Shown here piece by piece: positions 728-57,543 of a stretch of 64,000 bases of DNA (the first letter of the stretch is position 1; every line of letters starts with the position of its first letter). Origin of the DNA: Candidatus Nomurabacteria bacterium (GTDB taxonomy: Bacteria; Patescibacteriota; Minisyncoccia; Phycocordibacterales; SBAW01); assembly GCA_943356495.1 (NCBI GenBank), contig CALRFF010000002.1, forward strand, positions 12,596-76,595. Reading direction: 5' to 3'. The translations under genes were made by a program, and so were the position numbers. The notes under the pieces were generated by a model. That model was not told the DNA's origin. It was given only the letters and a program-made list of their open reading frames with translations, and made no database searches.

Positions 728-757
728 TTCGTGACAATAATGATAGCATAGTGCGGC

Positions 758-1000
758 ATGGCAAAAGTTTGCGACATAACGGGCAAAACTTCCAAAGTAG
801 CCGGCGGCTACTCTAACCGCGTGCGCGCCACCAAGTTTAACCCCACCGGCAAGGTGCGCAAGCAGCCGAACATGCAAAAAAAGCGCATTTTCGTGCCGGA
901 GCTTAACCGCGCGGTCACTATCACCGTTTCAACCCAAGGCCTTAAGACCATCGCCAAAAACGGGGCATACAAGACGCTCAAGAAAGCCGGCCTTATCTAA
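758..1000 (+). CDS. rpmB: 50S ribosomal protein L28
   Basis: 80 aa, MAKVCDITGK..NRVRATKF..RIFVPEL, typical L28. Confidence 0.85.
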   Translation: MAKVCDITGKTSKVAGGYSNRVRATKFNPTGKVRKQPNMQKKRIFVPELNRAVTITVSTQGLKTIAKNGAYKTLKKAGLI

Positions 1001-1141
1001 TTTTTTCGAAATAAAAAGACCGCCGCGGCTCTGACTTTAGAAGACATGGGCCCCTCCAAGGCATGCCTTGTTAAGATGGTACGCACGGTTACTAAAACCC
1101 CTTCTGCCGTTACAGTACCACGCAATGTTATACTGGCAACC

Positions 1142-1735
1142 ATGCAATACACAGAGAAAAAGTTTGTAATTCCTACGCTCGACGGTATATCAGCCAAGTC
1201 GGTCGAGGAACATCTCGGACTCTACGGCGGCTATGTCAAAAATTTTAACGCCATCAGCGCGGCCATCGAAGGGTTGCTTAGCGACCCGGACAAAAACGCG
1301 CTTGCCATAGCCGAGTTGCGCCGCCGACATTCCTTTGAGTTTGACGGCATGAAGCTCCACGAGCTGTATTTCCCCCAACTCGAGGGCGGCGCGCAGCCTA
1401 TCGGTGCAGAATCGGCGCTCGCACAAGCACTCACCAAACACTGGGGTGGTGTTGAGTCGGCAGTGGCACGCGTACGACAAACAGCCATGATGCGCGGGCC
1501 GGGCTGGAGCAACTTGTACTACAACCCCGAAAACGGCGCTTTTCATATGAGTTTTGTGGGCGAACAGCACCAAGGGCACTTTGCGACACTCCCTATAGTC
1601 CTTGCGCTCGATGTATGGGAGCATGCGTATCTTTTAGACCACGGCGCGGCGGGCAAAGCCGCCTATGTCGACGCCTTTTTTAAGAATTTAAATTGGTCGG
1701 TAATCGAAGATAGATTCGTACCGCTAACCAAGTAA
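1142..1735 (+). CDS. Fe/Mn superoxide dismutase
   Basis: LDVWEHAYLLD motif and HELYFPQL, N- and C-terminal SOD domains; start at MQYTEKKF internal Met. Confidence 0.85.
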   Translation: MQYTEKKFVIPTLDGISAKSVEEHLGLYGGYVKNFNAISAAIEGLLSDPDKNALAIAELRRRHSFEFDGMKLHELYFPQLEGGAQPIGAESALAQALTKHWGGVESAVARVRQTAMMRGPGWSNLYYNPENGAFHMSFVGEQHQGHFATLPIVLALDVWEHAYLLDHGAAGKAAYVDAFFKNLNWSVIEDRFVPLTK

Positions 1736-3025: not shown

Positions 3026-3736
3026 CTACGATGAAAATGCGGCGATGATCTCGGCCTCTTCGGCCGCGGACAGTGCTTTTTTGTAGCGCGCGGAGCGGCC
3101 GCGCACGCGGGCCTCGCAGTCGGCCCATGTTTTATGTATCTCAACCACACCGTCGACGACACTTATGTATGAAAACGCTTTTGCTTTAGAGCGCGCACTC
3201 GAAGAGGATTTCGATTTTTGTTTTACGTGGTCAAACGACAGATCGGAAATATCTACCCCATAGCCGCTTGCCGGACCGGAGTACAACACTACTTTTTTAC
3301 CTTCCGCAAAGTCCGATGCAATAGTGTCGACGCGCTCGTTGCCCGCAATGCCTACGTGCCCACCTACATAACGCCACTCAATATCGCGCCCGTGCGCGGC
3401 CACGGCCGCGTCGAGCGACTGCCACAAGTCTTGGTTGATAACCGGTTTTTTGTCTTTGGTCTTCCAGTCGTTTTTCTTCCAGCCGTGTATCCACTTGGTA
3501 ATACCGTTAATAACGTACGAAGAGTCAGTATGGATAATTGTTTGTCCGCCCACGCCCACATGCCGCTCGCGCAGCGCTTCTATTGCAGCGCGCAACTCCA
3601 TACGATTGTTGGTAGTTAATTTTTCGTAGCCGCCAAGCTCGGTCACCTGCTCGCGGGCGAGCACAATAGCGCCCCACCCGCCCGGGCCGGGGTTGCCTTT
3701 GCTCGCGCCGTCGCAAAAAATCAAAATAGTTTCCAT
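3026..3736 (-). CDS. rnhA: Ribonuclease HI with C-terminal hybrid-binding-like (Cauli_VI type) domain
   Basis: CDGASKGNPGPGGWG, TDSSYVINGITKWIHGWKKN and GHVGIAGNERVD RNase H motifs; C-terminal YISVVDG..IHKTWADCEARVRGRSARYKK..EEAE resembles the RNase H1 hybrid-binding domain. Confidence 0.85.
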   Translation of the reverse strand: METILIFCDGASKGNPGPGGWGAIVLAREQVTELGGYEKLTTNNRMELRAAIEALRERHVGVGGQTIIHTDSSYVINGITKWIHGWKKNDWKTKDKKPVINQDLWQSLDAAVAAHGRDIEWRYVGGHVGIAGNERVDTIASDFAEGKKVVLYSGPASGYGVDISDLSFDHVKQKSKSSSSARSKAKAFSYISVVDGVVEIHKTWADCEARVRGRSARYKKALSAAEEAEIIAAFSS

Positions 3737-3738
3737 AC

Positions 3739-5403
3739 TTACAATATATCAACGACACGGATACGGCTCCCGCCGCGCCAGCCGGCCTCGACGTGCCCTA
3801 CCACATCAACTTTCTCCCCCGCTACCGCTTTTTTGGTAAACGACTCGGGTGTAGCAAAAAAAGACATTGCCTCTATAGCCGCACTGCCTTGCCCGAGCGT
3901 AAGCCCTAAATGATTATGTGTCTTACCAAAGGCGCGCACCGTAGTGATAGACACTGCAGGAAATATAAATAACGGCTTAGTGTTGCCCACGCCAAACGGC
4001 GCCAGTTGTTTTATGTTGTTGTACGCGCGGAACACTTCGGCAAGCTCGAGCTCGCGGTCAAGCAGTATCTCCTCGACGACGGCATTTTGGTTACGCACGC
4101 TTTCGTACGCGGCACTAAGTTTGGGGCCCAACTCATGCACCCGCTCTTCGAGCACCGAGAATCCTCCCGAGGCCGAATGTCCGCCGAAGTGGTCAAACAC
4201 TTCGCGTGCGGCGCCCATTAACTCCACCATATTGACCGAGCCATCGCTGCGGCAGCTGCCGCGCAGCTCCTCACCGCCCTGCCGGCCCCACAAAAATACC
4301 GGCTTTGCGTGCGCCTCGACCAATGTGTTGGCCACTAAACCTAAAATACCGGGGCGCCAGTTGGGGTTGCCCATGACTATAATGGGGCTTTTGGTCAAAT
4401 CGCTTTCCGACACACGCTTGTTGACCTCTTTAACCGTAGCGGCGACCAAGCCTTTGCGTTCGTCGTTAATGTGATTAAGGGCTATGGCGCGCTCCATTGC
4501 TTCTTCCTCGGTTGTCGCGGCAAGCAGCTCGGCGGCGGTTTGCGGCCGCTCCATGCGCGAAGCCGCGTTGATGCGAGGACTGAGCATAAACGTAATATCA
4601 TCCTCGGTAAGCGACGCGGTATGTATTTTTAGTAGCTTAAGCATTGCGGCGATGCCGGGGCGGCGGCCGCGGCGCATGACACGCAGCCCCGAGTGTGCGA
4701 GCATCCGGTTTTCCCCCACCAACGGCACCATGTCGCTCAGTGTCGCAATGCCCACCAAATCGAGCAGCCACTTTTCTTGCCCTTCGCCAAAGCCCGCGGG
4801 TCGCTCTTTGACGAGCAGCGCTTGCACCAACTTCCACGCGACGCCCGCGCCGCACAAACCGTCAAACGGATATTTGCTGTCGGGGCGCTTGGGGTTGATA
4901 AGCGCAAACGCTTCAGGCACGTGCTCGAGCGACGGAACCAGGTGGTGGTCGGTTACTATCGTGTCGATTCCTTTTTTGTTGGCGTGGGCAATTTGTGCGA
5001 CGTCGGTCGTGCCGAGATCGAGCGTAATCATTACTTTGACTCCCGCCGCGGCAAGTTCGTCTATGCCTTCGGTGTTCAACCCGTACCCTTCGGTGTGGCG
5101 ATGCGGTATGTAGTGTGTGACACTAAGCCCCATCGTGCGCAGAAACTCCACCAACATAACGCCGCCCGGTATCCCGTCGCAGTCGTAGTCGCTCCACACC
5201 GCCACCTTCTCGTTATTTTTTTTCGCCGAAAGAATCCGCTCTACCGCCTTGTGCATGTCAGGCAGTAAAAACGGGTCATGGCTGTCGCGGATAAAGTCGG
5301 GAGTAAGAAACTGCTCGTGCAAAAGAGGCTCAACGCCGCGGGAAAGAAGTAGATGTGCCACAAGGTCGTTATGCAGGGAATCGCGTACCTTGTAGGACCT
5401 CAT
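3739..5403 (-). CDS. recJ: Single-stranded-DNA-specific exonuclease RecJ
   Basis: DHH and DHHA1 motifs (SDYDCDGI, ITLDLG, TDHH); overlaps rnhA start, forming recJ-rnhA-comEC operon. Confidence 0.85.
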   Translation of the reverse strand: MRSYKVRDSLHNDLVAHLLLSRGVEPLLHEQFLTPDFIRDSHDPFLLPDMHKAVERILSAKKNNEKVAVWSDYDCDGIPGGVMLVEFLRTMGLSVTHYIPHRHTEGYGLNTEGIDELAAAGVKVMITLDLGTTDVAQIAHANKKGIDTIVTDHHLVPSLEHVPEAFALINPKRPDSKYPFDGLCGAGVAWKLVQALLVKERPAGFGEGQEKWLLDLVGIATLSDMVPLVGENRMLAHSGLRVMRRGRRPGIAAMLKLLKIHTASLTEDDITFMLSPRINAASRMERPQTAAELLAATTEEEAMERAIALNHINDERKGLVAATVKEVNKRVSESDLTKSPIIVMGNPNWRPGILGLVANTLVEAHAKPVFLWGRQGGEELRGSCRSDGSVNMVELMGAAREVFDHFGGHSASGGFSVLEERVHELGPKLSAAYESVRNQNAVVEEILLDRELELAEVFRAYNNIKQLAPFGVGNTKPLFIFPAVSITTVRAFGKTHNHLGLTLGQGSAAIEAMSFFATPESFTKKAVAGEKVDVVGHVEAGWRGGSRIRVVDIL

Positions 5404-5426
5404 TTCAAAAAGTATATACTGGAAGT

Positions 5427-5735
5427 ATGGAAAACTGCATTTTTTGTAAGATAGTGCGCGGTGAGATACCCACACACTTTACGTATGAAAACGAGTATGT
5501 GGTCGCCTTCCCCGATATACACCCCAAAGCGCCGGGGCATACGCTCGTAATCCCTAAGGAGCATCATCAATGGTTTTACGAAGTGCCTAAAGAGACCGCG
5601 GACGAGTGGTTTGGTGCGGCACAGATGCTCGGACTCAAATTAAAAGAGGAAACGGGAGCCGATTATTTGCAACTTTCCATCATCGGCAAAGACGTGCCCC
5701 ACGCGCACATCCACCTTATACCGCAGAAGCTCTAA
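5427..5735 (+). CDS. HIT-family (histidine triad) nucleotide hydrolase
   Basis: MENCIFCKI..., HAHIHLIP histidine triad; TATACT 6 nt upstream of ATG. Confidence 0.8.
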   Translation: MENCIFCKIVRGEIPTHFTYENEYVVAFPDIHPKAPGHTLVIPKEHHQWFYEVPKETADEWFGAAQMLGLKLKEETGADYLQLSIIGKDVPHAHIHLIPQKL

Positions 5736-6807: not shown

Positions 6808-7553
6808 GCGGAAATAATTTCAACAAAGGAAGTAACATCGGCACTCGCGTGGCCTACAAGCAGGCCCGCGATGTCGCCCTCGGCGATAAGTGCGGCGGCG
6901 TTTGCAGGCTCCACCGAGCCGCCGTAGAGCACCGGCACCTTAAGCGCCGATTTACGGTCAAGCACGTCGGCCAATGTTTTGCGTATAAAAATCGCCATCT
7001 CGCGGACCTCGGCGGACGTTAGCGCGGAGTCTGCGTGCTTGCCTATCGCCCACACCGGTTCGTAGGCAACTACGAGCTTGCCGGCGAGCGACTGTGCGCC
7101 GGAGAGAGCTGACCGTATTTGTTCGGCGATAAAAGAAAAATGCCCTCCGTCTTCGGTGCGCTCCAACTCGCCGACACACAAGACCGGCACCAGCCCTGCC
7201 GATGCGGCAGCCACCAACTGGCCGTGCACCGCGACATTGTCCTCGCCTAGGGCGCGGCGCTCGGAGTGCCCGACAAGGGCAAACGTGCCTCCTGCGGTTT
7301 TAACCATGGCGCCGGACACCCCGCCGGTCTGCGCGCCGGAGAGCCCCGAAACTGTTTGAGCGCCCACACGCACCGCAGAACTTTCTAACATTGCCGACAC
7401 AACCGGAATAAAAGGTGCGGGAACGGCAAGTGCTACTTCGACACCGCTTATGCCGCGCACTTTACGCTTAAGCACACGGGCAAAGTCCTTGGCGGACTCG
7501 GCGCTCTCTATATACATCTTCCAGTTACCAATGACGAGACGTTTGCGGGTCAC
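6795..7553 (-). CDS. tpiA: Triosephosphate isomerase
   Basis: GNWKM, AYEPVWAIG, YGGSV motifs. Confidence 0.9.
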   Translation of the reverse strand: MTRKRLVIGNWKMYIESAESAKDFARVLKRKVRGISGVEVALAVPAPFIPVVSAMLESSAVRVGAQTVSGLSGAQTGGVSGAMVKTAGGTFALVGHSERRALGEDNVAVHGQLVAAASAGLVPVLCVGELERTEDGGHFSFIAEQIRSALSGAQSLAGKLVVAYEPVWAIGKHADSALTSAEVREMAIFIRKTLADVLDRKSALKVPVLYGGSVEPANAAALIAEGDIAGLLVGHASADVTSFVEIISACKK

Positions 7554-7568
7554 AGGGCAAATATACCA

Positions 7569-9050
7569 CTATTCGTTCCCTTCCTTTTCTTGAGCAAAAC
7601 GGAGCACTTCGGCTACGCTTGTTTGGCCGGCAGCGGCCTTATAGAGCGCGTCTTCGTACAGGTTAAGCAGAGGTTCGCCGCCCACCACCACTTCAAACAG
7701 GCCTACATGACCTTGATACCCACCGTCGCACTCGCTGCAACCGGTAACCGCCGGGTATCCGACCTCTTTCCAGATACGCTCTTTGTCTATAGCATCAGCT
7801 TCCTTAAGCGCGGCAAGCACTTTTGCAAAATCAGCATGCGGCTCGAGCGGCTCGAGGTGCCGGCGCTCAAGTGTGCGGGTAGCGCGGGTTTGTTTTTGAC
7901 ACAGTTTGCGCACCAGCCCCGTGCGTACGAGCACATCGGGCGCGGGGAAAAGCCGCTCATCGGCGACACCGGCAAGCACGAGTATGCCGCGCTTGCCTGC
8001 GGCAGCGGCAAGATCGGCGGTCGCTTGATCGGCAACGGCGTCGAGCATGACCACATCGGGGTCTTGGCGCAACACCGCGCGCAGCGCGCCGGCCATACTT
8101 AGACCCCCCGCGGGGTCGGCCTGAGTTTGTGCTACATACGGTAAACGGCTTGCTACTTTTTTTTCAACACTGGCGAGGGAAAGCTCGGGGGTATTGAGCA
8201 GGTCGAGCATCGTATACAACAGCGTAGTGCGGCCCGAACCTTGCGGGCCGGAGACCACCACCAATCCTTTACGGTCGTGTAATGCCGCACGTAAAGCCGT
8301 AGCGCCCGCACCGTGCAGACCCAAGCCTTCGAGCGTAAAGCCTTTGCTGGTCGAGTCTTCGCGCAACAACCTAAGTATCAATTTTTCGCCGCCCACTACC
8401 GGTACGGAAGAAACCCGTACCGACACCCCGACACCGAAGCCTAAGTCGGCTTTAAAACGGCCTTCTTGCGGCAAGGTTTTAGAACCGATGTTCGCAAGCG
8501 AGCGCACTGCGCCGATAACGCCGGCACCGGCGGCAGGGAGCTGCATTGCCTCGCGCAACTGTTTGCCGAGCCGATAGCGCACCAAGACGCCGCGGCCCGT
8601 AGTGTCTATATGGACTTCGCTCGCCTGTTGGGCCATCGCGTGGCGCAGCAACGTTTCGAGCATGGTGCGCGGATTAGACGACTGTGTTAACACGGCGCCG
8701 TACTTTTCCTTAAGGGTTTTTTGGTACAGCAGCAGCGCGCGGCGCAAAGAATCGGCGGTGGTAAGCCGCGGGACTACTCTTTTGCGCAGCTGCTGGCGCA
8801 AAGGCTCGAGCACCCCTAGGTCTTGTAGGTTAAGCAGTGCCACTTCGAGCGTGTCACCCTCTGTTTTATAGGCAACCAGCTGGTGAGCACGGCAGAGCGG
8901 CTCGGGCAGCATCTGTAAAGCCTCTACCGATATGTCGTCGCGCTCTAAGGTGACAAACGGTACCCCGAGCTCGTGGGCAAGCGCGTGCCGGCGCTCATCC
9001 TCGCTCAACAGTTCATTTTGTAGCCACCCTATAGAACGTTCCATTGACAC
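7569..9050 (-). CDS. PilB/GspE-family secretion ATPase paralog with degenerate catalytic motifs
   Basis: T2SE N-terminal domain and C-terminal C..C zinc-finger region as in GspE; Walker A reads GPQGSGRTT (Lys replaced by Arg); Asp/His boxes replaced (DAVAD.., GVADE instead of TLHTN). Confidence 0.7.
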   Translation of the reverse strand: MSMERSIGWLQNELLSEDERRHALAHELGVPFVTLERDDISVEALQMLPEPLCRAHQLVAYKTEGDTLEVALLNLQDLGVLEPLRQQLRKRVVPRLTTADSLRRALLLYQKTLKEKYGAVLTQSSNPRTMLETLLRHAMAQQASEVHIDTTGRGVLVRYRLGKQLREAMQLPAAGAGVIGAVRSLANIGSKTLPQEGRFKADLGFGVGVSVRVSSVPVVGGEKLILRLLREDSTSKGFTLEGLGLHGAGATALRAALHDRKGLVVVSGPQGSGRTTLLYTMLDLLNTPELSLASVEKKVASRLPYVAQTQADPAGGLSMAGALRAVLRQDPDVVMLDAVADQATADLAAAAGKRGILVLAGVADERLFPAPDVLVRTGLVRKLCQKQTRATRTLERRHLEPLEPHADFAKVLAALKEADAIDKERIWKEVGYPAVTGCSECDGGYQGHVGLFEVVVGGEPLLNLYEDALYKAAAGQTSVAEVLRFAQEKEGNE

Positions 9051-9181
9051 TATTATATAGTATGAAGTAGACTATAGAAGTCTGGAAACTGCCCTGAGGG
9101 GGCGGTTATTTTTTTACCGGATTTAAGGGAACACTTATGTCCCTTAACGGGATGAGAAAAATTAAATAACAAAATTAATAT

Positions 9182-10381: not shown

Positions 10382-10404
10382 CTATTAAGTAGTACAATAT
10401 TCTT

Positions 10405-10935
10405 ATGAATCTCTGGCACGACATTGCTCCGGGTACGCCTGAAGAGCTGAACGTTATTATCGAGATACCCAAAGGCTCACACAACAAGTACGAGGTAGAC
10501 AAAGACACCGGCCTTATCAAGCTCGACCGCGCCAACTACTCCGACGCGGCCTACCCGTTTGACTACGGTTTTGTACCGCAGACGCTGTGGGACGACGGCG
10601 ACCCGCTCGACGTAGTGGTGCTCACCACCTACCCACTCGCCCCGGGCATCTTGGTGGCGGTGCGTCCGGTTGCCGTGATGGACATGATCGACTCGGGCGA
10701 AGGCGACGCTAAAATCATCGCCGTACCGGTCGAGGACAAGCGATGGGAGGACGTGCAGGACCTTGCGGATGTTAACAAACACTCGCTTAAAGAGTTCCAG
10801 CATTTCTTCGAAACCTACAAAGCGCTCAAGGGCAAGCCCGCGCCGGTAGAGATCCGCGGCATCCAAGGCAAGGCCGAGGCTGTTGCCGCCATCAACAAAT
10901 CTATCGAGCTCTACAAACAAAAGTTCGCTAAGTAA
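10405..10935 (+). CDS. ppa: Inorganic pyrophosphatase
   Basis: DYGFVPQT and DGDPLDV motifs, 176 aa. Confidence 0.9.
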   Translation: MNLWHDIAPGTPEELNVIIEIPKGSHNKYEVDKDTGLIKLDRANYSDAAYPFDYGFVPQTLWDDGDPLDVVVLTTYPLAPGILVAVRPVAVMDMIDSGEGDAKIIAVPVEDKRWEDVQDLADVNKHSLKEFQHFFETYKALKGKPAPVEIRGIQGKAEAVAAINKSIELYKQKFAK

Positions 10936-10983
10936 TATCCACACTCAAAAAAGGGCGCCGGCGGCAGCAGGTATACTTAAGGC

Positions 10984-11787
10984 ATGAAACGCCTTATACA
11001 CACTGCAGCTATTATCGGCGCCCTTTTGCTTGCTCCCGCTTTGGTGTTTGCACAAGAAACATCCGTGGACGCACAAGCAACCGTGACCGCATCGACCAGC
11101 CGTCCGCTCCCTAAGCCTAAACTGGGGCCCGCTATTAAAAACACTATCCAAGATACCCGCGCCGGAGTAAAAAACCTTGCTTCTACCACACGCGAGGCAG
11201 TTAAGTCCCGTGTTGATGCTATACAGAATCTTATAGGCGAACACAAGCTTGATGTGCAGGCGATAGTAGAGCTTAAACGGCAGGGCGTAGGGAGCTCCAC
11301 ACCCGAGGAGCGCGAAGCGGCGCGCCTCGAAACCCGCCAAAAAATAGAAGACAGGCGTGCGGAAGTGCAGGCCCGCGTCGAGGCCGCTAAAGCAAAGGCC
11401 GCGGAAAAGTTTAGCGAGGCGGTACAAAAAAATGTCGGTGCCATCGTCGACCGTCTTACCAAGGCAATCTCCGACCTTAGCGCTATCGCCGAGCGCATAG
11501 ACGCCCGTATTAAAGAGCACGAGGCCAAGGGTACCAATATGAACATATCGGCAAGCTTGCTCGCCACAGCGCGCATCGACATAGCCTCTGCGCAGGACAA
11601 AGTAACTGCCGTTGGTACCGCACTAACCACGGCACTTTCCGCTACTAACCCCAAAGAAGCCGTGGCGCCGGTGCGCGCGGCGGTAAAGGATGCCGAGGAC
11701 GCGCTCAAGGTAGCAAAAGACTCCCTTAAAAAGACCCTCGAGTCGATGCGCGCCGAGGCACAGGCCACTACAACGACGACTATTTAA
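10984..11787 (+). CDS. Secreted alpha-helical/coiled-coil protein of unknown function
   Basis: Signal peptide (LLLAPALVFAQE), Ala/Lys/Glu-rich helical repeats; no recognisable domain. Confidence 0.5.
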   Translation: MKRLIHTAAIIGALLLAPALVFAQETSVDAQATVTASTSRPLPKPKLGPAIKNTIQDTRAGVKNLASTTREAVKSRVDAIQNLIGEHKLDVQAIVELKRQGVGSSTPEEREAARLETRQKIEDRRAEVQARVEAAKAKAAEKFSEAVQKNVGAIVDRLTKAISDLSAIAERIDARIKEHEAKGTNMNISASLLATARIDIASAQDKVTAVGTALTTALSATNPKEAVAPVRAAVKDAEDALKVAKDSLKKTLESMRAEAQATTTTTI

Positions 11788-12168: not shown

Positions 12169-12219
12169 GACTCACAAAAAAGATGCTGTGGATAGCGCCT
12201 TTGGCGCTATACTGGCGGC

Positions 12220-12384
12220 ATGGATGAGACACCTCTTTCAGCCGAACAGAACGAGCATGGCATCGGCCCGACGCTCGGCATTGTGGTCGTGGTTATATTA
12301 GTTGCTATAGGCGGCATCTATTTTTTTATCGAGGAGAGCAAGCGGCTGCATACGCCGCCCGTTGAAGAGCATTTGAACGCTTAA
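12220..12384 (+). CDS. Small (54 aa) single-TM hypothetical protein
   Basis: ATG ORF MDETPLSAEQNEHGIGPTLGIVVVVILVAIGGIYFF...; TATACT exactly 6 nt upstream of ATG (leaderless pattern); below ORF-track threshold. Confidence 0.35.
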   Translation: MDETPLSAEQNEHGIGPTLGIVVVVILVAIGGIYFFIEESKRLHTPPVEEHLNA

Positions 12385-12401
12385 GAAAATGATGCTACTA
12401 T
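12373..12401 (+). promoter_or_regulatory. Sigma70-type promoter for tig: TTGAAC-N17-TACTAT, hexamer ends 6 nt before ATG (leaderless)
   Basis: TTGAAC 12373-12378, TACTAT 12396-12401, ATG 12408. Confidence 0.55.
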
Positions 12402-12407
12402 CGCGCG

Positions 12408-13466
12408 ATGTCCGAAAAAAACAGTAGCCTAAAAGAAACGGCCGAAACTTTTGTACGTAAAGAGCTGCCCGAGTCGGAAATAGAGTTTGTGGGCGAGGTG
12501 CCCGCCGAGAATATTGCCCCCTACAAAGAGCAGGCCTTGGCGCATATATCACAGAGCATCGAGCTACCCGGTTTTCGCCCCGGCAAAGTACCCAAAGACA
12601 TGGCTCTTAAAAAAGTCGGCGACATGGCCGTACTCGAAGAGGCGGTAGAACTTTTTGTAAAAGATTTTTACCGCGAGTTTATCGACACCGTACAGGTAGA
12701 GGCCGTCGGCCGCCCGGACATACGCATTACTAAGCTTGCGCCCGACCAGCCGGTCGGGCTGACTATCCGCGTAACCACGTATCCGGAAGTTACGTTGCCC
12801 AAACACTGGAAGGACTTGGCCGAAAAAATTGCGCTTGAACCGTCGCTGCCCGCTACCGAGGAAGAGGTCGCCAAAACACTCGAGGACCTGCGCCAGTCAC
12901 GCAAGAAAGACGGTTCGCCAGCCGGCGAAGTGCCCGAGCTTAGCGACGAGTTTGCCAAGTCGCTCGGCGCGTTTGACAGCGTCGCGCACTTGCGGGAGCA
13001 AATTACCAAAGGTATTACCGAAGAAAAGGCCCGTTCGGCGCGCGATGCCCGCCGCGGCAAACTTATCGACGCGCTGCTCGAGCAGACCACCGTGGCCGTG
13101 CCGCGCCTGTTTATCGAAAGCGAGCTCGAAAAGATTTTGGCCCAAATGCGCGAGGACGTGACGCGTTTTGGTATGACCTTCGACGATTATCTGAAACGCA
13201 CCGAAAAAACAGAAGAAGCGCTCCGCGACGACTTTCGCGAGCAGGCTAAAAAGCGCGCCAAGCTACAGTTAACTCTCAACAAGGTCGCGCAAGAAGAGAA
13301 AGTGGAGGCCGACCCAACCGCGGTCGAAGCCGAAATGAAGCATGCGATAGAACACTTCCCCGATGCCAACCCCGAGCTGGTCAAAATCCACATCGAAACA
13401 GTCATGCGCAACGAAGGCGCGCTTAAAATTTTGGAGGGAGAACTAAAAGGAGAGCCTCTGAAATAA
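12408..13466 (+). CDS. tig: Trigger factor lacking the central FKBP/PPIase domain
   Basis: Ribosome-binding signature GFRPGKVP; N-domain joins directly to C-domain (PELSDEFAKSLG...); 352 aa versus ~430 canonical; followed by clpP. Confidence 0.8.
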   Translation: MSEKNSSLKETAETFVRKELPESEIEFVGEVPAENIAPYKEQALAHISQSIELPGFRPGKVPKDMALKKVGDMAVLEEAVELFVKDFYREFIDTVQVEAVGRPDIRITKLAPDQPVGLTIRVTTYPEVTLPKHWKDLAEKIALEPSLPATEEEVAKTLEDLRQSRKKDGSPAGEVPELSDEFAKSLGAFDSVAHLREQITKGITEEKARSARDARRGKLIDALLEQTTVAVPRLFIESELEKILAQMREDVTRFGMTFDDYLKRTEKTEEALRDDFREQAKKRAKLQLTLNKVAQEEKVEADPTAVEAEMKHAIEHFPDANPELVKIHIETVMRNEGALKILEGELKGEPLK

Positions 13467-13505
13467 AAATAGCCTCGGCTCCTACTATTTGTTATAGTGT
13501 CGCGT

Positions 13506-14132: not shown

Positions 14133-14181
14133 TGGTATTGTGGGGAAGTGCTTTTCTTAATGAAATTTATGCTTTCTTCAT

Positions 14182-44557: not shown

Positions 44558-44562
44558 TTACT

Positions 44563-45216: not shown

Positions 45217-45217
45217 T

Positions 45218-47035: not shown

Positions 47036-47037
47036 TT

Positions 47038-47625
47038 ATGAAAGGCTTTTTACTTATACTTTTTGCACTGTTCATAGACGGCTTACAGGCCATGCTTATG
47101 CTTGTCTTTACGGTCATGCAGTTTGTCACGCCTATTGGAGGTGGAATTGCCGGTGCTTTGGCGGCCGGGCAGTATTGCTGGAGTATCTCTTCAGGTATTT
47201 TTAGCGGCGCTTACAGTTGGGCCTCATGCGCGCTAACTGGTGGGGTTGTAGGTGCAGGGGTGAGTGCTTTTGCTATACCTATAGGCGTCGCTGTCGATGT
47301 AGCCATAACTATTACCTTCGGTGGCGTGTTGGTTATGGTGCTGGCATGGATGGGGATGTTTTACCCCGGTACCGTATTGGGAGTCTTTTTTGGAGAGTCT
47401 ATTCCGATTATTAACATCTTGCCCGGCTGGACACTGATGACCTGGCGCTGCTTGCACAAAAAGAATCAGGAAGAAAAAGATAAGCGTAAAGGTTTTAGCG
47501 GAGCAATGCCGGGAGTGTCGCTCAACGCTGTGCCGGGCCGCGAGGACACTGCGTTTGAAAAAGCCCAATGGGCCACGCGTAGAATCAACGACTCCCGCCA
47601 GGTAGACGGTATACGTCATGCATAA
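47038..47625 (+). CDS. Operon gene 8: Gly-rich polytopic membrane protein
   Basis: 195 aa, 4-5 predicted TM helices; unknown family. Confidence 0.5.
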   Translation: MKGFLLILFALFIDGLQAMLMLVFTVMQFVTPIGGGIAGALAAGQYCWSISSGIFSGAYSWASCALTGGVVGAGVSAFAIPIGVAVDVAITITFGGVLVMVLAWMGMFYPGTVLGVFFGESIPIINILPGWTLMTWRCLHKKNQEEKDKRKGFSGAMPGVSLNAVPGREDTAFEKAQWATRRINDSRQVDGIRHA

Positions 47626-48640
47626 CTTCCGCCCTATATTTTTTATACTTGCCGCCCTGCTGTATGCGGGTACCGTACACGCGCAAGGCTCGGGCGTGGA
47701 CCCGGTGCAGTACATTATTGCGCCGGAAACTCCGGGGCCCAATGCTCCGGTGCAGATAACCGTACAAGGGGTGGGGAGCTTCCTCGGTGACGCAACCATC
47801 ACCTGGAGCGTGGGCGGCAAAACGGTTGCGAGCGGCACGGGTTTAGCCGCGTTTAGCTTTACCACCGGCGAGCTGGGCACGCAGAGTATAGTGCGCCTTA
47901 CTATCAGCTCGGCAACGCAAGGGCTTATTACGCGAACCTTTACCTTTACGCCGTCGGTCATCAACCTTGTATGGGAGGCGGACACCTCGGTACCGCCGCT
48001 TTTTGCCGGCAAGGCGCTGTACAGCGCAGGCTCTCCGCTGCGGGTGGTGGCCTTTCCGACCGTTATTGTGGCGGGTAAAAAAGTTGCCGCCGAAAGTCTG
48101 TCGTACCAATGGTCGGTAAACGAGCAGCCGGTGCCCGCGTTGTCGGGCACCGGCAAACATATACTGACCTACACGGGCGACCAGTTACAAAGCGCCGAGG
48201 TGGTGTCGGTGGAGGTATATTTTGGGAGTCTAAAGGTCGGGCGCGCCGAAATTGCCGTACCCGCAAGTGAAACACAGGTGCTGTTGTACCACAAAGATGC
48301 ACTGCGCGGAGTCGTGTGGGACAACAGTATGCCCGCAAGCATTGCGCTCGGAGGAAAAGAGCTTACGCTGCAGGCACAGCCGTACTTTTTTGCCAACACC
48401 GCATTAAAAGGCGGCGCGGTGTCATGGACATGGACACTCAACGACGAGGTGGTTACCGGCCCCGACTCGGCAAAAGGCCTGCTTACCCTGCGCCAAACCG
48501 GCGAAGGGAAGGGGAGCGCGTCACTTACGGTAGAGCTGCAAAACCAAAACTCATCGCAGTTGGTGCAGTCGGCAAAAACGATACTTAGTATTATCTTCGG
48601 CAGCGCGCAATCGGGCTTTTCTTCCTTCTTCGGCCTATGA
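47618..48640 (+). CDS. Operon gene 9: secreted beta-rich protein
   Basis: Signal peptide (LAALLYAGTVHAQG), 340 aa, Thr/Ser/Val-rich. Confidence 0.55.
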   Translation: MHNFRPIFFILAALLYAGTVHAQGSGVDPVQYIIAPETPGPNAPVQITVQGVGSFLGDATITWSVGGKTVASGTGLAAFSFTTGELGTQSIVRLTISSATQGLITRTFTFTPSVINLVWEADTSVPPLFAGKALYSAGSPLRVVAFPTVIVAGKKVAAESLSYQWSVNEQPVPALSGTGKHILTYTGDQLQSAEVVSVEVYFGSLKVGRAEIAVPASETQVLLYHKDALRGVVWDNSMPASIALGGKELTLQAQPYFFANTALKGGAVSWTWTLNDEVVTGPDSAKGLLTLRQTGEGKGSASLTVELQNQNSSQLVQSAKTILSIIFGSAQSGFSSFFGL

Positions 48641-49146
48641 AATATCTAACCAAAGAAAAAATACAGGGAATACTGCTGGCGGGGATTACATACACTCCGC
48701 TTGAGCCCTTCCCCAACGCCACGACGGCCACATACAACTCACTCGGCCTGTATCTTAATTTTGTGTTTAAGATTTTGCTTTCTTTGGGGGCCATGGTGGC
48801 AGTAGTAACGCTCGTATTCGGAGGCATAGCCTACATGGTGTCCGAAATTGCGGACAAAAAAACCGAGGCAAGAAAACGCATACAGGCGGCACTCCTCGGG
48901 CTCTTTCTGCTACTGACTTGCTGGCTCATTTTGTATGAAATCAACCCAAATCTGGTTAAATTCTGTCTACCCGGTCTCGACGCCGCTTGCCAGGGGGCTA
49001 TGGCTCCCTCCACTGCGCGCCCTGCCGCCCAGCCTTCGACCGCAAGTGTTGCCCCGAAGCCAGACAACGCAGACAAGGCTGATTGTGAGTCGGTAGCCGG
49101 CAGAACCTTGCATGCAACCGGTCCGGGCACGTGGGAATGCAGATAA
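48637..49146 (+). CDS. Operon gene 10: VirB2/TrbC-like pilin candidate
   Basis: Two hydrophobic helices flanking a short charged loop (SEIADKKTEARKR), the T-pilin topology, preceded by a leader region; 169 aa with Cys-containing tail. Confidence 0.45.
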   Translation: MKYLTKEKIQGILLAGITYTPLEPFPNATTATYNSLGLYLNFVFKILLSLGAMVAVVTLVFGGIAYMVSEIADKKTEARKRIQAALLGLFLLLTCWLILYEINPNLVKFCLPGLDAACQGAMAPSTARPAAQPSTASVAPKPDNADKADCESVAGRTLHATGPGTWECR

Positions 49147-49150
49147 CATT

Positions 49151-50392
49151 ATGAACAAAACGTACCTATATTACATCGGGGGGACCATAACAGCAGTAGT
49201 AATTTCAGGCGTACTTGCGTTCTTTATTTTCTCGAACGGCCCGGCGACACAAACACAAGGACCGGCCGGTAGTGGTTTCGGCTCAACTGAAAATACAACA
49301 ACTAACGCCGGGGCCTCCGGCACTAACGGAGGGGCAGGGGGAGTGTCACAAAATACCGGCGCGCAAACCTCTCAGCAAAAAATATTCAAAATTTCAGACG
49401 GCCCGGTCGCAGGCGCCACGTTTGTACAGACACTGCGCCCCACGACAACCCTGGCGCGCTTTGTAATGGCAGAAAATGGTCACACGTTCGACCTGGTACT
49501 CGACTCGCAAGGCGCGGTTCCTAAAGCGCTATCCAATACCACTATCCCCGGCGCCCAGAGTACGCTTTGGGTAGAAAAAGGCAATGCCACTGTATTGCAA
49601 TACCTCGACGGTACAACGCCTAAAACTGTGTACCTTGGATTTGCAACAAGTAGCGCTTCTACCAACCCGATCGTGCGCCTGCAGTTTTATCCAGACGGCA
49701 TCGTGTCGTTTGCGGGTTCGCCCGACGGAACGCAGGTTGCCTATCTGTTGCGCACCGCAAGAGGGGTGGACGCCTACACAGCAAAAACGGACGGCACCCA
49801 AGGCAAACGGCTCTTTTCGCTCCCGCTCTCAGAGGTGCAGCTGCGCTGGCCGGCGCAAGGCACCTTGCTTGCACATACCAATGCCGCTGTCGGCGTGCCG
49901 GGGATTGCCTTTGCCATAGACGCAAAAACGGGCGTAGTAACCCCGCTCGTATATGCGCCGGGGCTGACCGCAACAGCCGACCTCACTTTTGACCATGTGA
50001 TGTACCAAACCACACCAGCTAGTTCCGGTATGCGGGCAACCTACTCGCGCGAGGTCAGCTCGGGCACCAACCGTGCGCTTTCATTTGATCCCTACCCGGA
50101 GAAATGTATACAGAGCCCGCGCGCCGCAACCGTACTGTATTGTGCAACTCCGCTCGACTACGTAGCTACAACCTACCTTGATATGTGGCACCAGGGTGCA
50201 GCGAGCACTGCAGACAGTGTTATTTCATTTGACCTTGTGGCAGGCACCTCGCAGATACTCGCAACGCCGGGTGGGGCCGAAGGGGGAGTGGCTACCGATA
50301 TGTTGCAGCTCGCAGCCTCGGGAGACGGGCGCTATCTGCTGTTTGTATCAAAATACGATCGCTCCCTGTGGGGCGTTAGGCTCCTGCCGTAG
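49151..50392 (+). CDS. Operon gene 11: membrane-anchored protein with Gly/Thr linker and TolB-like beta-propeller (PD40-type repeats)
   Basis: N-terminal TM, SPDGTQVAYL and SGDGRYLLFVS PD40-like repeats. Confidence 0.5.
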   Translation: MNKTYLYYIGGTITAVVISGVLAFFIFSNGPATQTQGPAGSGFGSTENTTTNAGASGTNGGAGGVSQNTGAQTSQQKIFKISDGPVAGATFVQTLRPTTTLARFVMAENGHTFDLVLDSQGAVPKALSNTTIPGAQSTLWVEKGNATVLQYLDGTTPKTVYLGFATSSASTNPIVRLQFYPDGIVSFAGSPDGTQVAYLLRTARGVDAYTAKTDGTQGKRLFSLPLSEVQLRWPAQGTLLAHTNAAVGVPGIAFAIDAKTGVVTPLVYAPGLTATADLTFDHVMYQTTPASSGMRATYSREVSSGTNRALSFDPYPEKCIQSPRAATVLYCATPLDYVATTYLDMWHQGAASTADSVISFDLVAGTSQILATPGGAEGGVATDMLQLAASGDGRYLLFVSKYDRSLWGVRLLP

Positions 50393-51842: not shown

Positions 51843-51977
51843 TTAGGCTGAGAGGCGAGCGCGGCCCTTGCGGCGGCGGCGGGCAAGCGTAGCGCGGCCT
51901 GCGGGGGTAGCCGCGCGCTTAAGAAACCCGTGGGAACGGGCCCGTTTGCGCTTTTTGGGCTGGTACGTTTGTGACAT
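51843..51977 (-). CDS. rpmH: 50S ribosomal protein L34
   Basis: 44-aa ORF absent from ORF track: [44 protein letters not shown]. Confidence 0.85.
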
Positions 51978-52075
51978 GTGTCAACTATACCGTATCCCCA
52001 GTTTCTCCACAACAAGTGCACACCTGTAGGAATTTTGACGGACGGGGCAATGGCGCGTATTCTTTAATAACTTCA

Positions 52076-55251: not shown

Positions 55252-55283
55252 AAAGACTACGATATATCGTAGTCTTTTTATTG
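55251..55283. terminator. Bidirectional rho-independent terminator between rdgB and the convergent PBP gene
   Basis: AAAAGACTACGATAT/ATCGTAGTCTTTTT, 14-bp perfect stem. Confidence 0.85.
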
Positions 55284-55291
55284 TCTCGTTT

Positions 55292-57523
55292 TTATTGAGG
55301 AATAATGGAGCCGCCGCTGGGGGAGAAGGCGGGGTTAAAGCTAGGGGGCACGTAGGGAATAGTCTGCGGCTGGTTGGGGCTCGAAGGGCCAGAATAGCCT
55401 CCTGCAGCGCCGTAGCGCGCTACTACGGGCGGATCCCACAGACGGAACTGGGAGTCCGTATTGGGGTTGCTCGGCGCGGGGCCCAGCGGGTCGGCTTTAT
55501 TAACCCAGTACAAAATTTCGTGTATCTGGCCGTCGCTTCCCGGTACCTGCCACTGGCCGCGCAGCACGGGCTTGAGTTGCGAGGTGTCTGTTTCGGTGCG
55601 GGTAAAGGATTCCGCGGGGACTTTGGTAAGAGCGTAGTTCATAAACTCGCTCCACGCGGGGCCGACGATAAAGCCCGAGACGCGCTTAACCATCGAGCTG
55701 TTGTCGTTGTTGCCCGCCCATACACCGACCGCAAGGTTGGGGGTGTAGCCGACCGTCCATGCGTCGCGGTAGTCGTTGGTGGTACCGGTCTTCATCGCCA
55801 CGTCGCGGCCGGGGAAGGCAAAGAGAGAATTTTCCCCCAGCGGCGCGCGGGCAACAGGGTCGGAGAGTATATCGTTTATGTCTTCTGCGGCATGTTGGGC
55901 AAGCACCTGCGAGCCGATGGCCTCGGTGTTGTCCTCTATGACATGTCCGACCGAGTCCTCTATTTTAAGTACCGCAAGCGAAGGGAAGTGCGTGCCGTTT
56001 TGTGCAAACGCGCCGTAGGCGCTCGTCATTTCAAGCAAGCTCACTTCGCCGCCGCCGAGCACCAATGTTAGGCCGTATTGGTCCGCTTGCCCAAGCGTGG
56101 TAAGTCCCATCGCTTTTGAAAGTTTAAGCACGTCGTTGATGCCGGCAAGGTACAGCACTTTAACCGCGGGTACGTTGATAGACTGCGCCAACGCCTCGCG
56201 CAGGCTCATCGGTCCGCGGAACTGGTTGTCATAGTTGACCGGCGCATAACATCCGGTGTCCGGGTCGGTAGTAAAGTCGTCGGCCTTACAGCCGGTAGAA
56301 AACTGGGTTTGCACGTCAAACACAACGGTGGCCGGGGTGTACCCTTCGCTAAACGCTTGCGCGTAGGCAAAGGGTTTAAAGGCCGAGCCCGGCTGACGCT
56401 CGGCGAGCGCGATATTGTAGTTGCCCTCTATGGCGTCGTCAAAATAGTCGCGCGAGCCCACCATGGCCAATATGTGGCCGGTCTTAGGGTCAATGGCGAC
56501 AAGTCCCATGTTGGTGGCGTTGTATTTGTCGACGTTGGCAAGCGCATTGCGGTTAACTATCTCCTCGGCATGGGTTTGCAGGTCTACATCGAGCGAGGTA
56601 GTTATCTTCCATCCGCCGGCGTCGAGTGCGTCTTGGCCGTACTTGTCTTCGAGGTACTGCTGCACATAAAAGACAAAGTGCGGCGCCACTATCGAGTTTT
56701 TACGCTGCGGCAAAAAGTCCACTGTAGCTACTTTGGCTTCGTCGCGCTGCGTTTCAGTGATGTAGCCATGCTCAAACATTTTGTCGAGCACCAAGTTTTT
56801 GCGCGCGTCGAGCCTGTCTTTGTGGTTGCCGTACGGCGAATAAAAAGTGGGGGCGGGCATCACGGCGGCAAGATAGGCGGCCTCGGCGATAGAAAGGTCG
56901 CTCGCCGCTTTGCCAAAAAAACCTTCCGACGCGGCCTCGGCACCGTACATAGGCCCTCCATAGGGCGCTTGGTTTAAGTATATTTCGAGTATTTGGTCTT
57001 TGGTAAGCGTACGCTCGAGCTTGAGCGCGAGTATCCACTCTTTGAGTTTGCGGGTAATACTTTTATCGTTGGTCAGCAGCGTCAGCTTTACCACCTGCTG
57101 GGTAATAGTGGAACCGCCCTGGTCAAACTTGAGGGTTGTAAGGTCGACAAACAGCGCGCGCATAATACCCATGGGTGAAATACCGCGGTGTTGGTAAAAT
57201 GCCGGGTCTTCAATCGCAATGGTCGCCGCCTGTATGTTGGTGCTTATCTTGGTAAGCGGCACCACGGTGCGATCGACGTTTTGGTTAAGGTCGTACAGCA
57301 GTACCTGCCCGGTGCGGTCAAATATCTGCACCGACTGGTCTATGCGGCGGTTTTCGAGTGCGGAAAGGTCGGGTATTTGGAGCGTGGCGGCCCACAGCAT
57401 GGTGCCCCCTACAAACACCAAACCGGCGCTTATGACCCATATACCGATGAGCCGCCAGTGATGGCGGACAAAGCGCAAACCGTCTTTGAGCCCCCGGCGG
57501 GCCCTAAGGAGAAACCGGTGCAT
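55292..57523 (-). CDS. Class A penicillin-binding protein (glycosyltransferase GT51 + transpeptidase)
   Basis: GT51 motifs (EDPAFYQHRGISPMGI), transpeptidase SxxK/SxN/KTG context; ATG at 57523 (MHRF) has TATACT 6 nt upstream; TTG at 57541 possible. Confidence 0.85.
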   Translation of the reverse strand: MHRFLLRARRGLKDGLRFVRHHWRLIGIWVISAGLVFVGGTMLWAATLQIPDLSALENRRIDQSVQIFDRTGQVLLYDLNQNVDRTVVPLTKISTNIQAATIAIEDPAFYQHRGISPMGIMRALFVDLTTLKFDQGGSTITQQVVKLTLLTNDKSITRKLKEWILALKLERTLTKDQILEIYLNQAPYGGPMYGAEAASEGFFGKAASDLSIAEAAYLAAVMPAPTFYSPYGNHKDRLDARKNLVLDKMFEHGYITETQRDEAKVATVDFLPQRKNSIVAPHFVFYVQQYLEDKYGQDALDAGGWKITTSLDVDLQTHAEEIVNRNALANVDKYNATNMGLVAIDPKTGHILAMVGSRDYFDDAIEGNYNIALAERQPGSAFKPFAYAQAFSEGYTPATVVFDVQTQFSTGCKADDFTTDPDTGCYAPVNYDNQFRGPMSLREALAQSINVPAVKVLYLAGINDVLKLSKAMGLTTLGQADQYGLTLVLGGGEVSLLEMTSAYGAFAQNGTHFPSLAVLKIEDSVGHVIEDNTEAIGSQVLAQHAAEDINDILSDPVARAPLGENSLFAFPGRDVAMKTGTTNDYRDAWTVGYTPNLAVGVWAGNNDNSSMVKRVSGFIVGPAWSEFMNYALTKVPAESFTRTETDTSQLKPVLRGQWQVPGSDGQIHEILYWVNKADPLGPAPSNPNTDSQFRLWDPPVVARYGAAGGYSGPSSPNQPQTIPYVPPSFNPAFSPSGGSIIPQ

Positions 57524-57543
57524 TAGTGTAGTATATAACAAAT

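Follow-up and report, generated by a model that had tools for sequence, protein, structure and literature searches.

Predicted leaderless mRNAs and overlapping divergent promoters in a Parcubacteria lineage that makes little use of Shine-Dalgarno sites

Introduction

How is translation started in a bacterium whose genes are rarely preceded by a Shine-Dalgarno (SD) sequence? This question is raised by the 64,000-nucleotide stretch of contig CALRFF010000002.1 (positions 12,596 to 76,595) that was analysed here, and to which we refer as the window. An initial annotation proposed that many of its genes have a promoter-like -10 hexamer, TAnnnT, at the distance from the start codon expected of leaderless mRNAs, that SD sites are largely unused, and that several closely spaced divergent genes draw on a single palindromic element. 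The proposal of -10 elements at leaderless distance with little use of SD was upheld in every sequence-based test that we ran.

The window belongs to an Adlerbacteria-like member of the Parcubacteria (Paceibacterota, candidate phyla radiation (CPR)). Its PNPase (26246-28360) is 83% and 80% identical to that of metagenome-assembled genomes (MAGs) labelled Candidatus Nomurabacteria and Candidatus Adlerbacteria, respectively, and 55-78% identical to that of 41 further Parcubacteria/Paceibacterota MAGs. An identical PNPase, with the same called start and a 704-aa product, is found on six public metagenome contigs.

Results

A -10 hexamer at a preferred distance from the start codon

Each gene was given one start, namely that with maximal downstream coding potential, and because upstream sequence was not used in this choice, circularity was avoided. 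In 14, 7 and 5 of 67 window genes a TAnnnT hexamer ends six, seven or eight nucleotides before the start (N6, N7 and N8), compared with approximately 2.3 genes expected per spacing from the mean of the other spacings between 0 and 20. The total at N6-8 is therefore 26 of 67 versus ~7 (P = 5e-8 for N6 and 7e-10 for N6-8), which bears out the proposed spacing when it is checked against controls. Forty-three related loci (L001-L043) were collected in all, and in the 35 related Parcubacteria loci used for the enrichment (576 genes), N6, N7 and N8 account for 101, 46 and 31 genes (178 in all) against ~16 per spacing (P = 7e-49). A further 35 genes have the box at N9, N6 is by far the largest class, and the peak is seen individually in nearly every related locus. 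In 50 kb of Escherichia coli run through the same pipeline, the SD fraction is 0.48 and a box at N6-8 is found in only 1 of 52 genes, and a distant Patescibacteria locus (L039) resembles E. coli, with an SD fraction of 0.7 and no box. The trait is therefore lineage-specific and is not produced by the method. Chance, or AT-rich spacers, was considered as the source of the boxes and rejected.

Curation raised the window count to 31-33 of 69 genes with a box at N6-8, in addition to four genes with a box at N9-12 (tyrS, a trypsin-like protease, hyp244 and dnaA), of which hyp244 and dnaA also have good -35 hexamers. Five genes are led by an SD site and 18 are tightly coupled to the gene upstream. 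Leaderless-type starts thus make up ~60-65% of the window genes that are not tightly coupled. Ten of the eleven instances listed by the initial annotation are exact; the remaining one, TATATA-N6 at tyrS, ends in A instead of T, and the TAnnnT pattern is matched there solely by TAGTAT-N9. To that list the present analysis adds sod, rnhA, tpiA, the T2SSE ATPase, ppa, the gene at 10984, rny, cca, xthA and the xerC-like gene, as well as the dksA-like gene, the PrgI gene, rpmH, yebC, ruvB, pilB and tsaE (Table 1).

The boxes have the features of sigma-A promoters

A total of 175 box-bearing ATG starts, selected solely on T1, A2 and T6 of the hexamer plus its spacing, were aligned on the hexamer. 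The extended -10 element TGn, with TG two bases 5' of the hexamer, precedes 45% of these boxes versus 6% of all TAnnnT occurrences. The base at -5 is T in 52% and that at -4 is a purine in 67%, which together with TGn gives TRTGn, the "-16 region" typical of Gram-positive promoters. TTG at a 17-nt spacer is found at 18.3% versus 2.3%, and the hexamer consensus is TA(T/c)(A/t)(A/c)T, its interior positions approaching TATAAT. Immediately before the start codon, a pyrimidine occupies -1 in 78% of cases with the box at N6 or N7; where the box is at N8 or N9, the base 7 nt beyond it is an A in 58% (at -2) and 52% (at -3), respectively. Under the rule that transcription starts at a purine following a pyrimidine (Y-1/R+1), initiation would occur on the A of ATG for N6 and N7 and leave 2-3-nt leaders for N8 and N9. 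The boxes therefore combine A-11 and T-7 with a -35 TTG at 17 nt and/or TGn and a purine start after a pyrimidine, as sigma-70/sigma-A promoters do, and judged by these features they are genuine sigma-A promoters. A scan for TTGACA-N16-18-TATAAT gave no excess over shuffled sequence (16 versus 10.6, 12 versus 13.3 and 9 versus 13.0); this is the wrong test, as the promoters depend on the extended -10 and not on the -35. Intrinsic terminators lie 5' of two boxes, with spacers of 23 nt at pnp and 31 nt at comM.

Start codons and protein N-termini

Box-bearing starts are almost exclusively ATG or GTG, as is usual at leaderless starts: of 176, 151 are ATG (86%), 17 are GTG (10%) and 8 are TTG (4.5%), some of the last probably being miscalls. 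This usage resembles that of leaderless genes in Deinococcus deserti, 83% of which start with ATG and 17% with GTG (PMC4007540). Among the GTG starts of the window, that of tpiA is a well-supported candidate for the leaderless type. Several observations support the called positions. In L28, RNase H, HIT/DcpS_C and ExoIII the Pfam domain starts at residue 1-4, in DnaA at residue 6, and in PPase, ClpP, Trigger_N and cca at residue 17-26; longer open reading frames (ORFs) for M50, recJ and PBP1A would run into their divergent neighbours rpmB, HIT and tyrS and are thereby excluded; and dozens of orthologues share the N-terminal peptides MKLISWNV, MLTKQKK and MQYA(K/R)VYG, beginning at the ATG.

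The box marks operon-first genes and is retained in orthologues

The box is found at operon-first rather than internal genes. It is present in 59% of genes separated from a same-strand neighbour by 11-30 nt and in 50% of those separated by 31-60 nt, versus 13% where the gap is 10 nt or less, and within the type IV secretion system (T4SS) operon of the window the PrgI-family gene alone has one. Orthologues were located by tblastn and scored for a box at N5-9 from the conserved N-terminal ATG. Despite flanks that are otherwise unconserved, the box is retained in 23/24 orthologues of xthA (at N6-7), 32/38 of rpsO, 19/20 of the dksA-like gene, 22/32 of the xerC-like gene, 18/28 of comM, 13/19 of cca, 12/16 of uvrD and 9/11 of the first T4SS gene. 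In the 32 rpsO orthologues the whole arrangement cTTGCG-N17-tgTGATAnnnT-N6 is conserved. The box is not kept before the operon-internal ksgA (4/19 orthologues) or before the methyltransferase that follows tRNA-Pro (1/11).

At pnp, most relatives have a terminator and the promoter ttttGCTACAGT, followed by a leader of ~95 nt. In the window, L021 and L037 the same GTTACAGT box stands directly before the ATG, at N6, with no leader left, and related boxes are at N6-N7 in L015, L016 and L042. The leader is absent from the window (26211-26245); on this comparison the window lineage has lost it, and pnp there is predicted to be leaderless.

Shine-Dalgarno sites occur at chance frequency

An SD core was defined as GGAG, GAGG or AGGA at -17 to -4. 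Counting starts with and without one places SD use in the window at chance level, with cores at 9% of starts versus 8.3-8.6% at random positions or at any ATG. None of the 18 coupled internal window genes, whose starts lie -35 to +7 nt from the upstream stop, has an SD core; this set includes the T4SS operon junctions, comEC, pgk, ksgA, yidC, rnpA, rdgB and ruvC. Strong SDs precede five window genes (15777, 23315, 25831, 30351 and 63417), among them the gene at 25831 for which an SD had been noted from the outset, where GGGGAGAG is indeed present. In the related loci, SD sites form a small peak 6-7 nt before the start (21 and 17 versus ~5), with canonical GGAGG sites among them. The SD pathway probably still works and is used by ~5% of genes, and this small peak, with GGAGG before a few genes, suggests that the anti-SD may be retained in the lineage. 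A search of the window and the 43 related loci for the 16S 3' end (GTCGTAACAAGGTA) gave no match.

Most SD-led genes are short, restricted to their lineage and low in coding score. Those at 15777-16205, 23315-23617, 25831-26202 and 29968-30351 are small, have no Pfam match and carry GGGGAGRG or GAGGAGAG; at least two SD-led window genes have no orthologue in the 43 related loci, and the SD-led genes of relatives are of a similar kind. Such genes may be accessory ones that were acquired recently, still with the initiation signal used in the donor.

Divergent genes with overlapping boxes

Four divergent pairs had been described as sharing a single palindromic -10 element in spacers of 30, 23, 24 and 20 bp (M50/rpmB, recJ/HIT, the small secreted gene/secretion operon at 38158/38183, and PBP1A/tyrS). 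The spacer lengths are confirmed, and the quoted palindromes are found where expected, AGTATATACT at 5411 and CATTATATAATG at 38164. Sharing holds for three of the four. Boxes overlap at recJ/HIT (5411-5416 and 5415-5420), at 38158/38183 (38165-38170 and 38169-38174) and at PBP1A/tyrS (57530-57535 and 57529-57534), whereas M50/rpmB has two separate boxes, 734-739 on the minus and 744-749 on the plus strand, and an A-to-A distance of 31 bp. The corresponding inferred A-to-A distances are 24 bp for recJ/HIT, 25 bp for 38158/38183 and 21 bp for PBP1A/tyrS, or 18 bp when measured to the A at tyrS -3, as tyrS probably has a 3-nt leader. The pair pilB/tsaE, absent from the initial annotation, is an additional case, with boxes at 62946-62951 and 62943-62948 and an A-to-A distance of 18 bp.

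When two leaderless genes face each other across 17-24 bp, box overlap follows from the geometry, and it is therefore a corollary rather than a separate phenomenon. At such distances the hexamers would overlap on opposite strands and form a pseudo-palindromic bidirectional promoter with its -35 regions inside the coding sequence of the neighbour, an arrangement that the extended -10 would make tolerable. Orthologous 38158/38183 pairs are present in L002 and L017. Close divergent pairs number eight in all among the relatives, too few to define a preferred ATG-ATG distance, and most pairs are more than 60 nt apart; the shared palindrome is an occasional arrangement and not a rule.

This configuration resembles the bidirectional promoters described by Warman et al. 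(bioRxiv 10.1101/2020.01.31.928960), in which divergent transcription start sites (TSSs) lie 7-25 bp apart with a preference for 18 bp and a secondary peak at 23 bp. Here too -10 hexamers overlap on opposite strands, in four window pairs at 18-25 bp, although the TSSs are predicted. The distance at pilB/tsaE equals the preferred one of that study; at PBP1A/tyrS, A-11 and T-7 of the two hexamers in TAGTATA pair mutually; and recJ/HIT and 38158/38183 (24-25 bp) fall within the 7-25-bp definition and near the 23-bp peak. The window differs in that its predicted TSSs are at or near the start codons, so that the entire 17-24-bp spacer is promoter and both -35s are in coding sequence. M50/rpmB does not fit.

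Features of the window

The window has a GC content of ~54% and 67-69 called genes, most of which were named by Pfam: M50 protease, rpmB, sod, comEC, rnhA, recJ, HIT, pgk, tpiA, nusA, ppa, tig, clpP, rny, cca, xthA, xerC-like, rpsO, pnp, comM, uvrD, ksgA, a PrgI/VirB4/T4SS-pilin operon, rpmH-rnpA-yidC-jag, dnaA, dnaN, PBP1A, tyrS, ruvCB, pilB and tsaE. Rfam found four tRNAs and no rRNA in the window.

Table 1. Box-led, short-leader and SD-led starts in the window. Nn, nucleotides between hexamer and start codon; TGn, extended -10; TM, transmembrane.
Feature	Position	Strand	Details
M50 protease	725..739	-	TATTGT (734-739), N6, ATG 727; Pfam Peptidase_M50
rpmB (L28)	744..760	+	TGn-TAGCAT (744-749), N8, ATG 758; -35 TTGCAT, 16-nt spacer; Ribosomal_L28 from residue 3
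Fe/Mn superoxide dismutase (sod)	1129..1144	+	TGn-TATACT, N7, ATG 1142; Sod_Fe_C position fits 197-aa protein
rnhA	3734..3748	-	TGn-TATATT, N6, ATG 3736; promoter within recJ 3' end; RNase_H from residue 3
recJ (ATG 5403, -) / HIT (ATG 5427, +)	5401..5429	both	23-bp spacer; AGTATATACT (5411-5420) carries TATACT-N7 and TATACT-N6; Pfam
tpiA	7551..7565	-	TGn-TATATT, N6, GTG 7553; conserved N-terminal GNWKM after GTG
T2SSE/PilB-like ATPase	9042..9062	-	TACTAT-N6-GTG 9050 or TATAAT-N7-ATG 9044; Pfam
ppa	10393..10407	+	TACAAT, N6, ATG 10405; Pfam
Hypothetical 267-aa secreted protein	10972..10986	+	TATACT, N6, ATG 10984
54-aa TM ORF	12208..12222	+	TATACT, N6, ATG 12220
tig	12373..12410	+	TTGAAC-N17-TGn-TACTAT-N6-ATG 12408; Trigger_N from residue 18
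clpP	13493..13508	+	TGn-TATAGT, N7, ATG 13506; Pfam
rny	14168..14184	+	TATGCT, N8, ATG 14182; A at -2
DUF3298 protein	17515..17531	-	TGn-TATACT, N8, ATG 17517
cca/poly(A) polymerase family	20611..20625	+	TGn-TAGAAT, N6, ATG 20623
xthA-like exonuclease	23217..23231	-	TGn-TATTGT, N6, ATG 23219; Pfam domain from residue 4
xerC-like recombinase	24510..24526	-	TATTGT, N7, ATG 24512; box overlaps conserved 12-mer ATATTGTGCGAC (24515-24526)
rpsO	24580..24617	+	TTGCGG-N17-TGn-TAGAGT-N6-ATG 24615
pnp	26188..26248	+	Intrinsic terminator 26188-26210 and T-run, TGn-TACAGT (26234-26239), N6, ATG 26246
dksA/traR-type zinc-finger protein	29453..29468	+	TGn-TATACT, N7, ATG 29466
comM-like	31378..31444	+	Terminator 31378-31398, TATACT (31430-31435), N6, ATG 31442; Pfam
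Small secreted gene (ATG 38158, -) / first T4SS-operon gene (ATG 38183, +)	38156..38185	both	24-bp spacer; CATTATATAATG (38164-38175) carries TATAAT-N6 and TATAAT-N8
PrgI-family gene within T4SS cluster	44103..44119	+	TATACT, N8, ATG 44117; possible internal promoter; Pfam
rpmH (L34)	51975..51989	-	TATAGT, N6, ATG 51977; -35 TTGTGG at 17 nt; first gene of rpmH-rnpA-yidC-jag
PBP1A (ATG 57523, -) / tyrS (ATG 57544, +)	57521..57546	both	20-bp spacer; 7-mer TAGTATA (57529-57535) = TATACT-N6 (PBP1A) and TAGTAT-N9 (tyrS); Pfam
yebC	59943..59959	-	TTGAAC-N17-TATTCT, N8, ATG 59945
ruvB	60961..60976	-	TACTAT, N7, ATG 60963
pilB (ATG 62938, -) / tsaE (ATG 62956, +)	62936..62958	both	17-bp spacer; TACAAT-N7 and TATATT-N7 overlap in TATATTGTA (62943-62951)
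Short-leader type (ATG 30513)	30473..30515	+	TTGACA-N16-TGn-TATCTT, N12; predicted leader ~5-6 nt
dnaA	52035..52078	+	TTGACG-N17-TATTCT, N12, ATG 52076; predicted leader ~5-6 nt
SD-led contrast, hypothetical 142 aa	15765..15779	+	GGGGAGGG, 4 nt, ATG 15777
SD-led contrast, hypothetical	23304..23317	+	GGGGAGAG, 3 nt, GTG 23315; no orthologue in loci
SD-led contrast, Cys-containing 123 aa	25821..25833	+	GGGGAGAG, 2 nt, ATG 25831
SD-led contrast, hypothetical	30349..30363	-	GAGGAGAG, 4 nt, ATG 30351; no orthologue in loci
T4SS operon junctions 39082, 41033, 44563, 45218, 47038, 47618, 48637, 49151	39076..49153	+	Starts -14 to +5 nt from upstream stop; no SD core, no -10 box

Additional elements in the window and its relatives

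The leader that separates the ttttGCTACAGT promoter from pnp (L004:9924-10003 and equivalents in ~30 loci) folds into an outer helix of ~12 bp, an invariant internal loop (5'-AGG / 3'-AA, within GAUAGGUAG...CCUAAAAUC) and an inner hairpin. In the alignment 93.9% of cells are paired and 16 of 20 pairs show compensatory changes, values reached by 0 of 500 shuffles, and the leader has no Rfam match. The 3' strand of the outer helix can pair alternatively with bases just before the ATG, which would provide a riboswitch-like platform, and the element may be a new cis-regulatory RNA or a site of RNase III/PNPase autoregulation. In the window, nusA is among the few leadered genes, with a TTGACA-N18-TAGACT promoter (9044-9073, in the region 9044-9182) followed by a terminator-like hairpin at 9087-9107 and then an A/T-rich stretch of ~75 nt; this leader could be an attenuator.

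The 12-mer ATATTGTGCGAC(G), at 24515-24526 on the minus strand of the window, occurs once per locus beside the start of the xerC-like gene in nearly all of L001-L043. It is found in either orientation and at variable distance, falls inside codons 1-4 in L024 and L041-L043 (ATGTCGCACAAT), and is present in L027 as the inverted pair ACATTGTGCGAC-N8-GTCGCACAATGT. It could be an operator or, as with xerS/difSL, where the Xer site is kept next to the recombinase, a dif-like Xer site.

Some protein genes without a -10 box of their own follow a same-strand tRNA at a distance of 0-14 nt. In the tRNA-Pro region of the window (19647-19729) the methyltransferase ATG is 8 nt after the tRNA, an arrangement also seen in L007, L009, L011, L014, L016, L020, L029, L042 and L043; a tRNA is followed by cca in L001, L020, L022 and L042, and the ATG abuts the 3' end of tRNA-Gly in L042 and L043. 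Processing of such tRNA-mRNA co-transcripts would give near-leaderless mRNAs, reminiscent of mitochondrial tRNA punctuation.

The T4SS-type cluster (38183-50392) consists of twelve same-strand genes, including PrgI-family, VirB4/TraG-P-loop and T4SS-pilin genes and genes for large proteins without Pfam match, and looks like the monoderm-type T4SS reported for Patescibacteria (bioRxiv 10.1101/2025.01.22.634366). In the origin neighbourhood (50376-54718), jag-yidC-rnpA-rpmH diverges from dnaA-dnaN, and oriC may lie in one of two non-coding gaps, that of 98 nt between rpmH and dnaA or that of 201 nt between dnaA and dnaN.

Discussion

We consider it likely that gene expression in this lineage is organised around leaderless mRNAs, as the position and make-up of the boxes predict. 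A sigma-A-type promoter, composed of a weak -35 TTGnnn at 17 nt, TRTGn and a TAnnnT ending 6-7 nt before the start with a pyrimidine at -1, would direct RNA polymerase to initiate on the A of ATG, or 2-3 nt earlier from N8-N9 boxes, and the 5'-terminal AUG would be recognised directly by ribosomes without SD pairing. In model bacteria, leaderless AUGs are handled by 70S ribosomes or by 30S subunits with initiator tRNA. Downstream operon genes, which start -35 to +7 nt from the preceding stop and have no SD, would most likely be translated by termination-reinitiation or coupling, while ~5% of genes, mostly small and lineage-specific, would have a 5' untranslated region (UTR) with a strong canonical SD.

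Several observations weigh against this reading. About one third of the non-coupled genes have no box at N6-N12, and nusA, hupA, NYN, dnaN, hyp119, g43541, jag, hyp54 and the methyltransferase after tRNA-Pro are without a recognisable signal. Inside genes, TAnnnT-N6/7-ATG shows no depletion in a test of low power, with ~14-18 non-start cases per spacing against a background of ~16. The gene caller is crude; its wrong starts lower the counts but might also skew the context classes. Boxes at N8 and N9 point to leaders of 2-3 nt rather than none, and pnp is leadered in most relatives, indicating that the geometry is not fixed for any one gene. Everything beyond the presence of a promoter -10 box is an inference.

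Promoter boxes and ribosome-binding sites (RBSs) occupy the same 6-8-nt distance from the start (GeneMarkS-2, PMC6028130), so a motif at the RBS position in a lineage where SD is essentially unused, and another initiation signal is consequently needed, might be a non-SD translation-initiation element in leadered mRNAs, similar to the A/T-rich motif found 5' of Bacteroidota genes (GeneMarkS-2 group B), with the real promoters further upstream. We think this very improbable. A T-A-n-n-n-T accompanied by TRTGn and a -35 TTG at 17 nt would be meaningless to a ribosome, whereas pyrimidine at -1 and A at +1 fit TSS selection. Group B motifs precede first and internal genes alike, whereas here the motif is rare (13%) before coupled internal genes. 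Moreover, terminators end 23-31 nt 5' of the pnp and comM boxes, and the divergent spacers of 17-24 bp leave no room for a more distant promoter outside the coding sequence of the neighbour.

Equally little credence is due to the idea that the boxes are ordinary promoters with normal 5' UTRs and that the true starts lie downstream. MAG starts are unverified, callers could favour the first ATG after an AT-rich spacer, and several genes do have alternative in-frame starts; nevertheless, starts were chosen without reference to the motif, Pfam domains begin near the N-terminus, N-terminal peptides are conserved from the ATG, and there is no SD before any downstream candidate. Somewhat less improbable, though still unlikely, is that the promoters are real but that most mRNAs have mini-leaders of 2-8 nt and are translated by means of a lineage-specific factor or ribosome feature. 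The existence of N8, N9 and N12 classes with an A 7 nt after the box, the processed mini-leaders that genes 0-14 nt after tRNAs would give, and the unusual ribosomes of CPR bacteria, which have lost uL30, uL1, bS21 and in some cases the anti-SD (PMC9297842), are in keeping with it. However, N6 dominates over N7, N8 and N9, and with Y-1/A+1 represents the canonical distance for a start on the A. As D. deserti leaders of less than 6 nt behave as leaderless (PMC4007540), mini-leaders would differ from leaderless mRNAs in degree and not in kind.

The type of architecture is known, from GeneMarkS-2 group C, from D. deserti and from bidirectional promoters; the novelty lies in the lineage and in how nearly SD is absent. 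Full-text literature searches turned up no paper that connects leaderless mRNAs to CPR, Patescibacteria or Parcubacteria. As in group C, D. deserti and mycobacteria, TAnnnT lies 6-8 nt 5' of the ATG or GTG of operon-first genes, with TSSs predicted here rather than mapped, the -35 is weak or absent, ATG dominates, and there is a minority class with 1-5-nt leaders. Sixty percent of D. deserti transcription units are leaderless, close to the predicted share of non-coupled window genes and to the 60-70% of transcription units estimated here, and 62% of the leadered mRNAs of D. deserti use SD (PMC4007540). Group C is known chiefly from Actinobacteria and Deinococcus-Thermus (Lomsadze et al. 2018, PMC6028130). 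The window lineage belongs to another phylum, its TRTGn extended -10 is prominent, and, whereas the internal and leadered genes of group C use SD-type RBSs, its remaining genes do not, the SD peak coming from ~5% of genes.

The predicted combination of leaderless first genes with SD-independent initiation at packed downstream genes also resembles that of haloarchaea (GeneMarkS-2 group D). In these organisms, including Haloferax volcanii, most mRNAs are leaderless and SD is dispensable for internal genes. Archaeal promoters have a TATA box ~26 nt upstream and archaea use their own initiation factors; the promoter in the window is of the bacterial sigma-70 type and not a TATA box. Closer relatives are the Parcubacteria, approximately half of them, in which no anti-SD motif was detected (Tsurumaki et al. 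2022, PMC9297842), and which belong to the same superphylum and class-level group as the window lineage. That study gives no alternative initiation mechanism, and the word "leaderless" is absent from it.

In practical terms, SD-trained calling of gene starts in CPR/Parcubacteria MAGs would be systematically unreliable, and the rule TRTGn-TAnnnT-N6/7-ATG is usable as a model of both start and promoter that brings to light genes masked by over-long ORFs, for example rpmB, HIT and rpmH. The predicted arrangement would also illustrate how strongly intergenic DNA can be compacted, as a spacer of 17-24 bp can serve two genes. A concrete answer is offered to the question of how translation is initiated in Parcubacteria reportedly lacking the anti-SD, and a third major bacterial lineage would join those with leaderless-dominated expression. 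The case, in a lineage whose ribosomes are reduced, is relevant to the view that leaderless initiation is ancestral or minimal. A bolder reading, which we put forward tentatively and regard as possible though doubtful, is that this Adlerbacteria/Kaiserbacteria-like lineage has all but abandoned SD initiation and relies almost only on 5'-terminal AUGs, leaderless or tRNA-processed, and on reinitiation. If so, it would represent a haloarchaeon- or mitochondrion-like regime within Bacteria, explain in mechanistic terms why the anti-SD, uL1 and bS21 are reported to have eroded in CPR ribosomes, and place leaderless initiation within the minimal-cell strategy of CPR bacteria. Leaderless expression in the window lineage thus offers a testable, as yet predicted, link to the reduction of the CPR ribosome.

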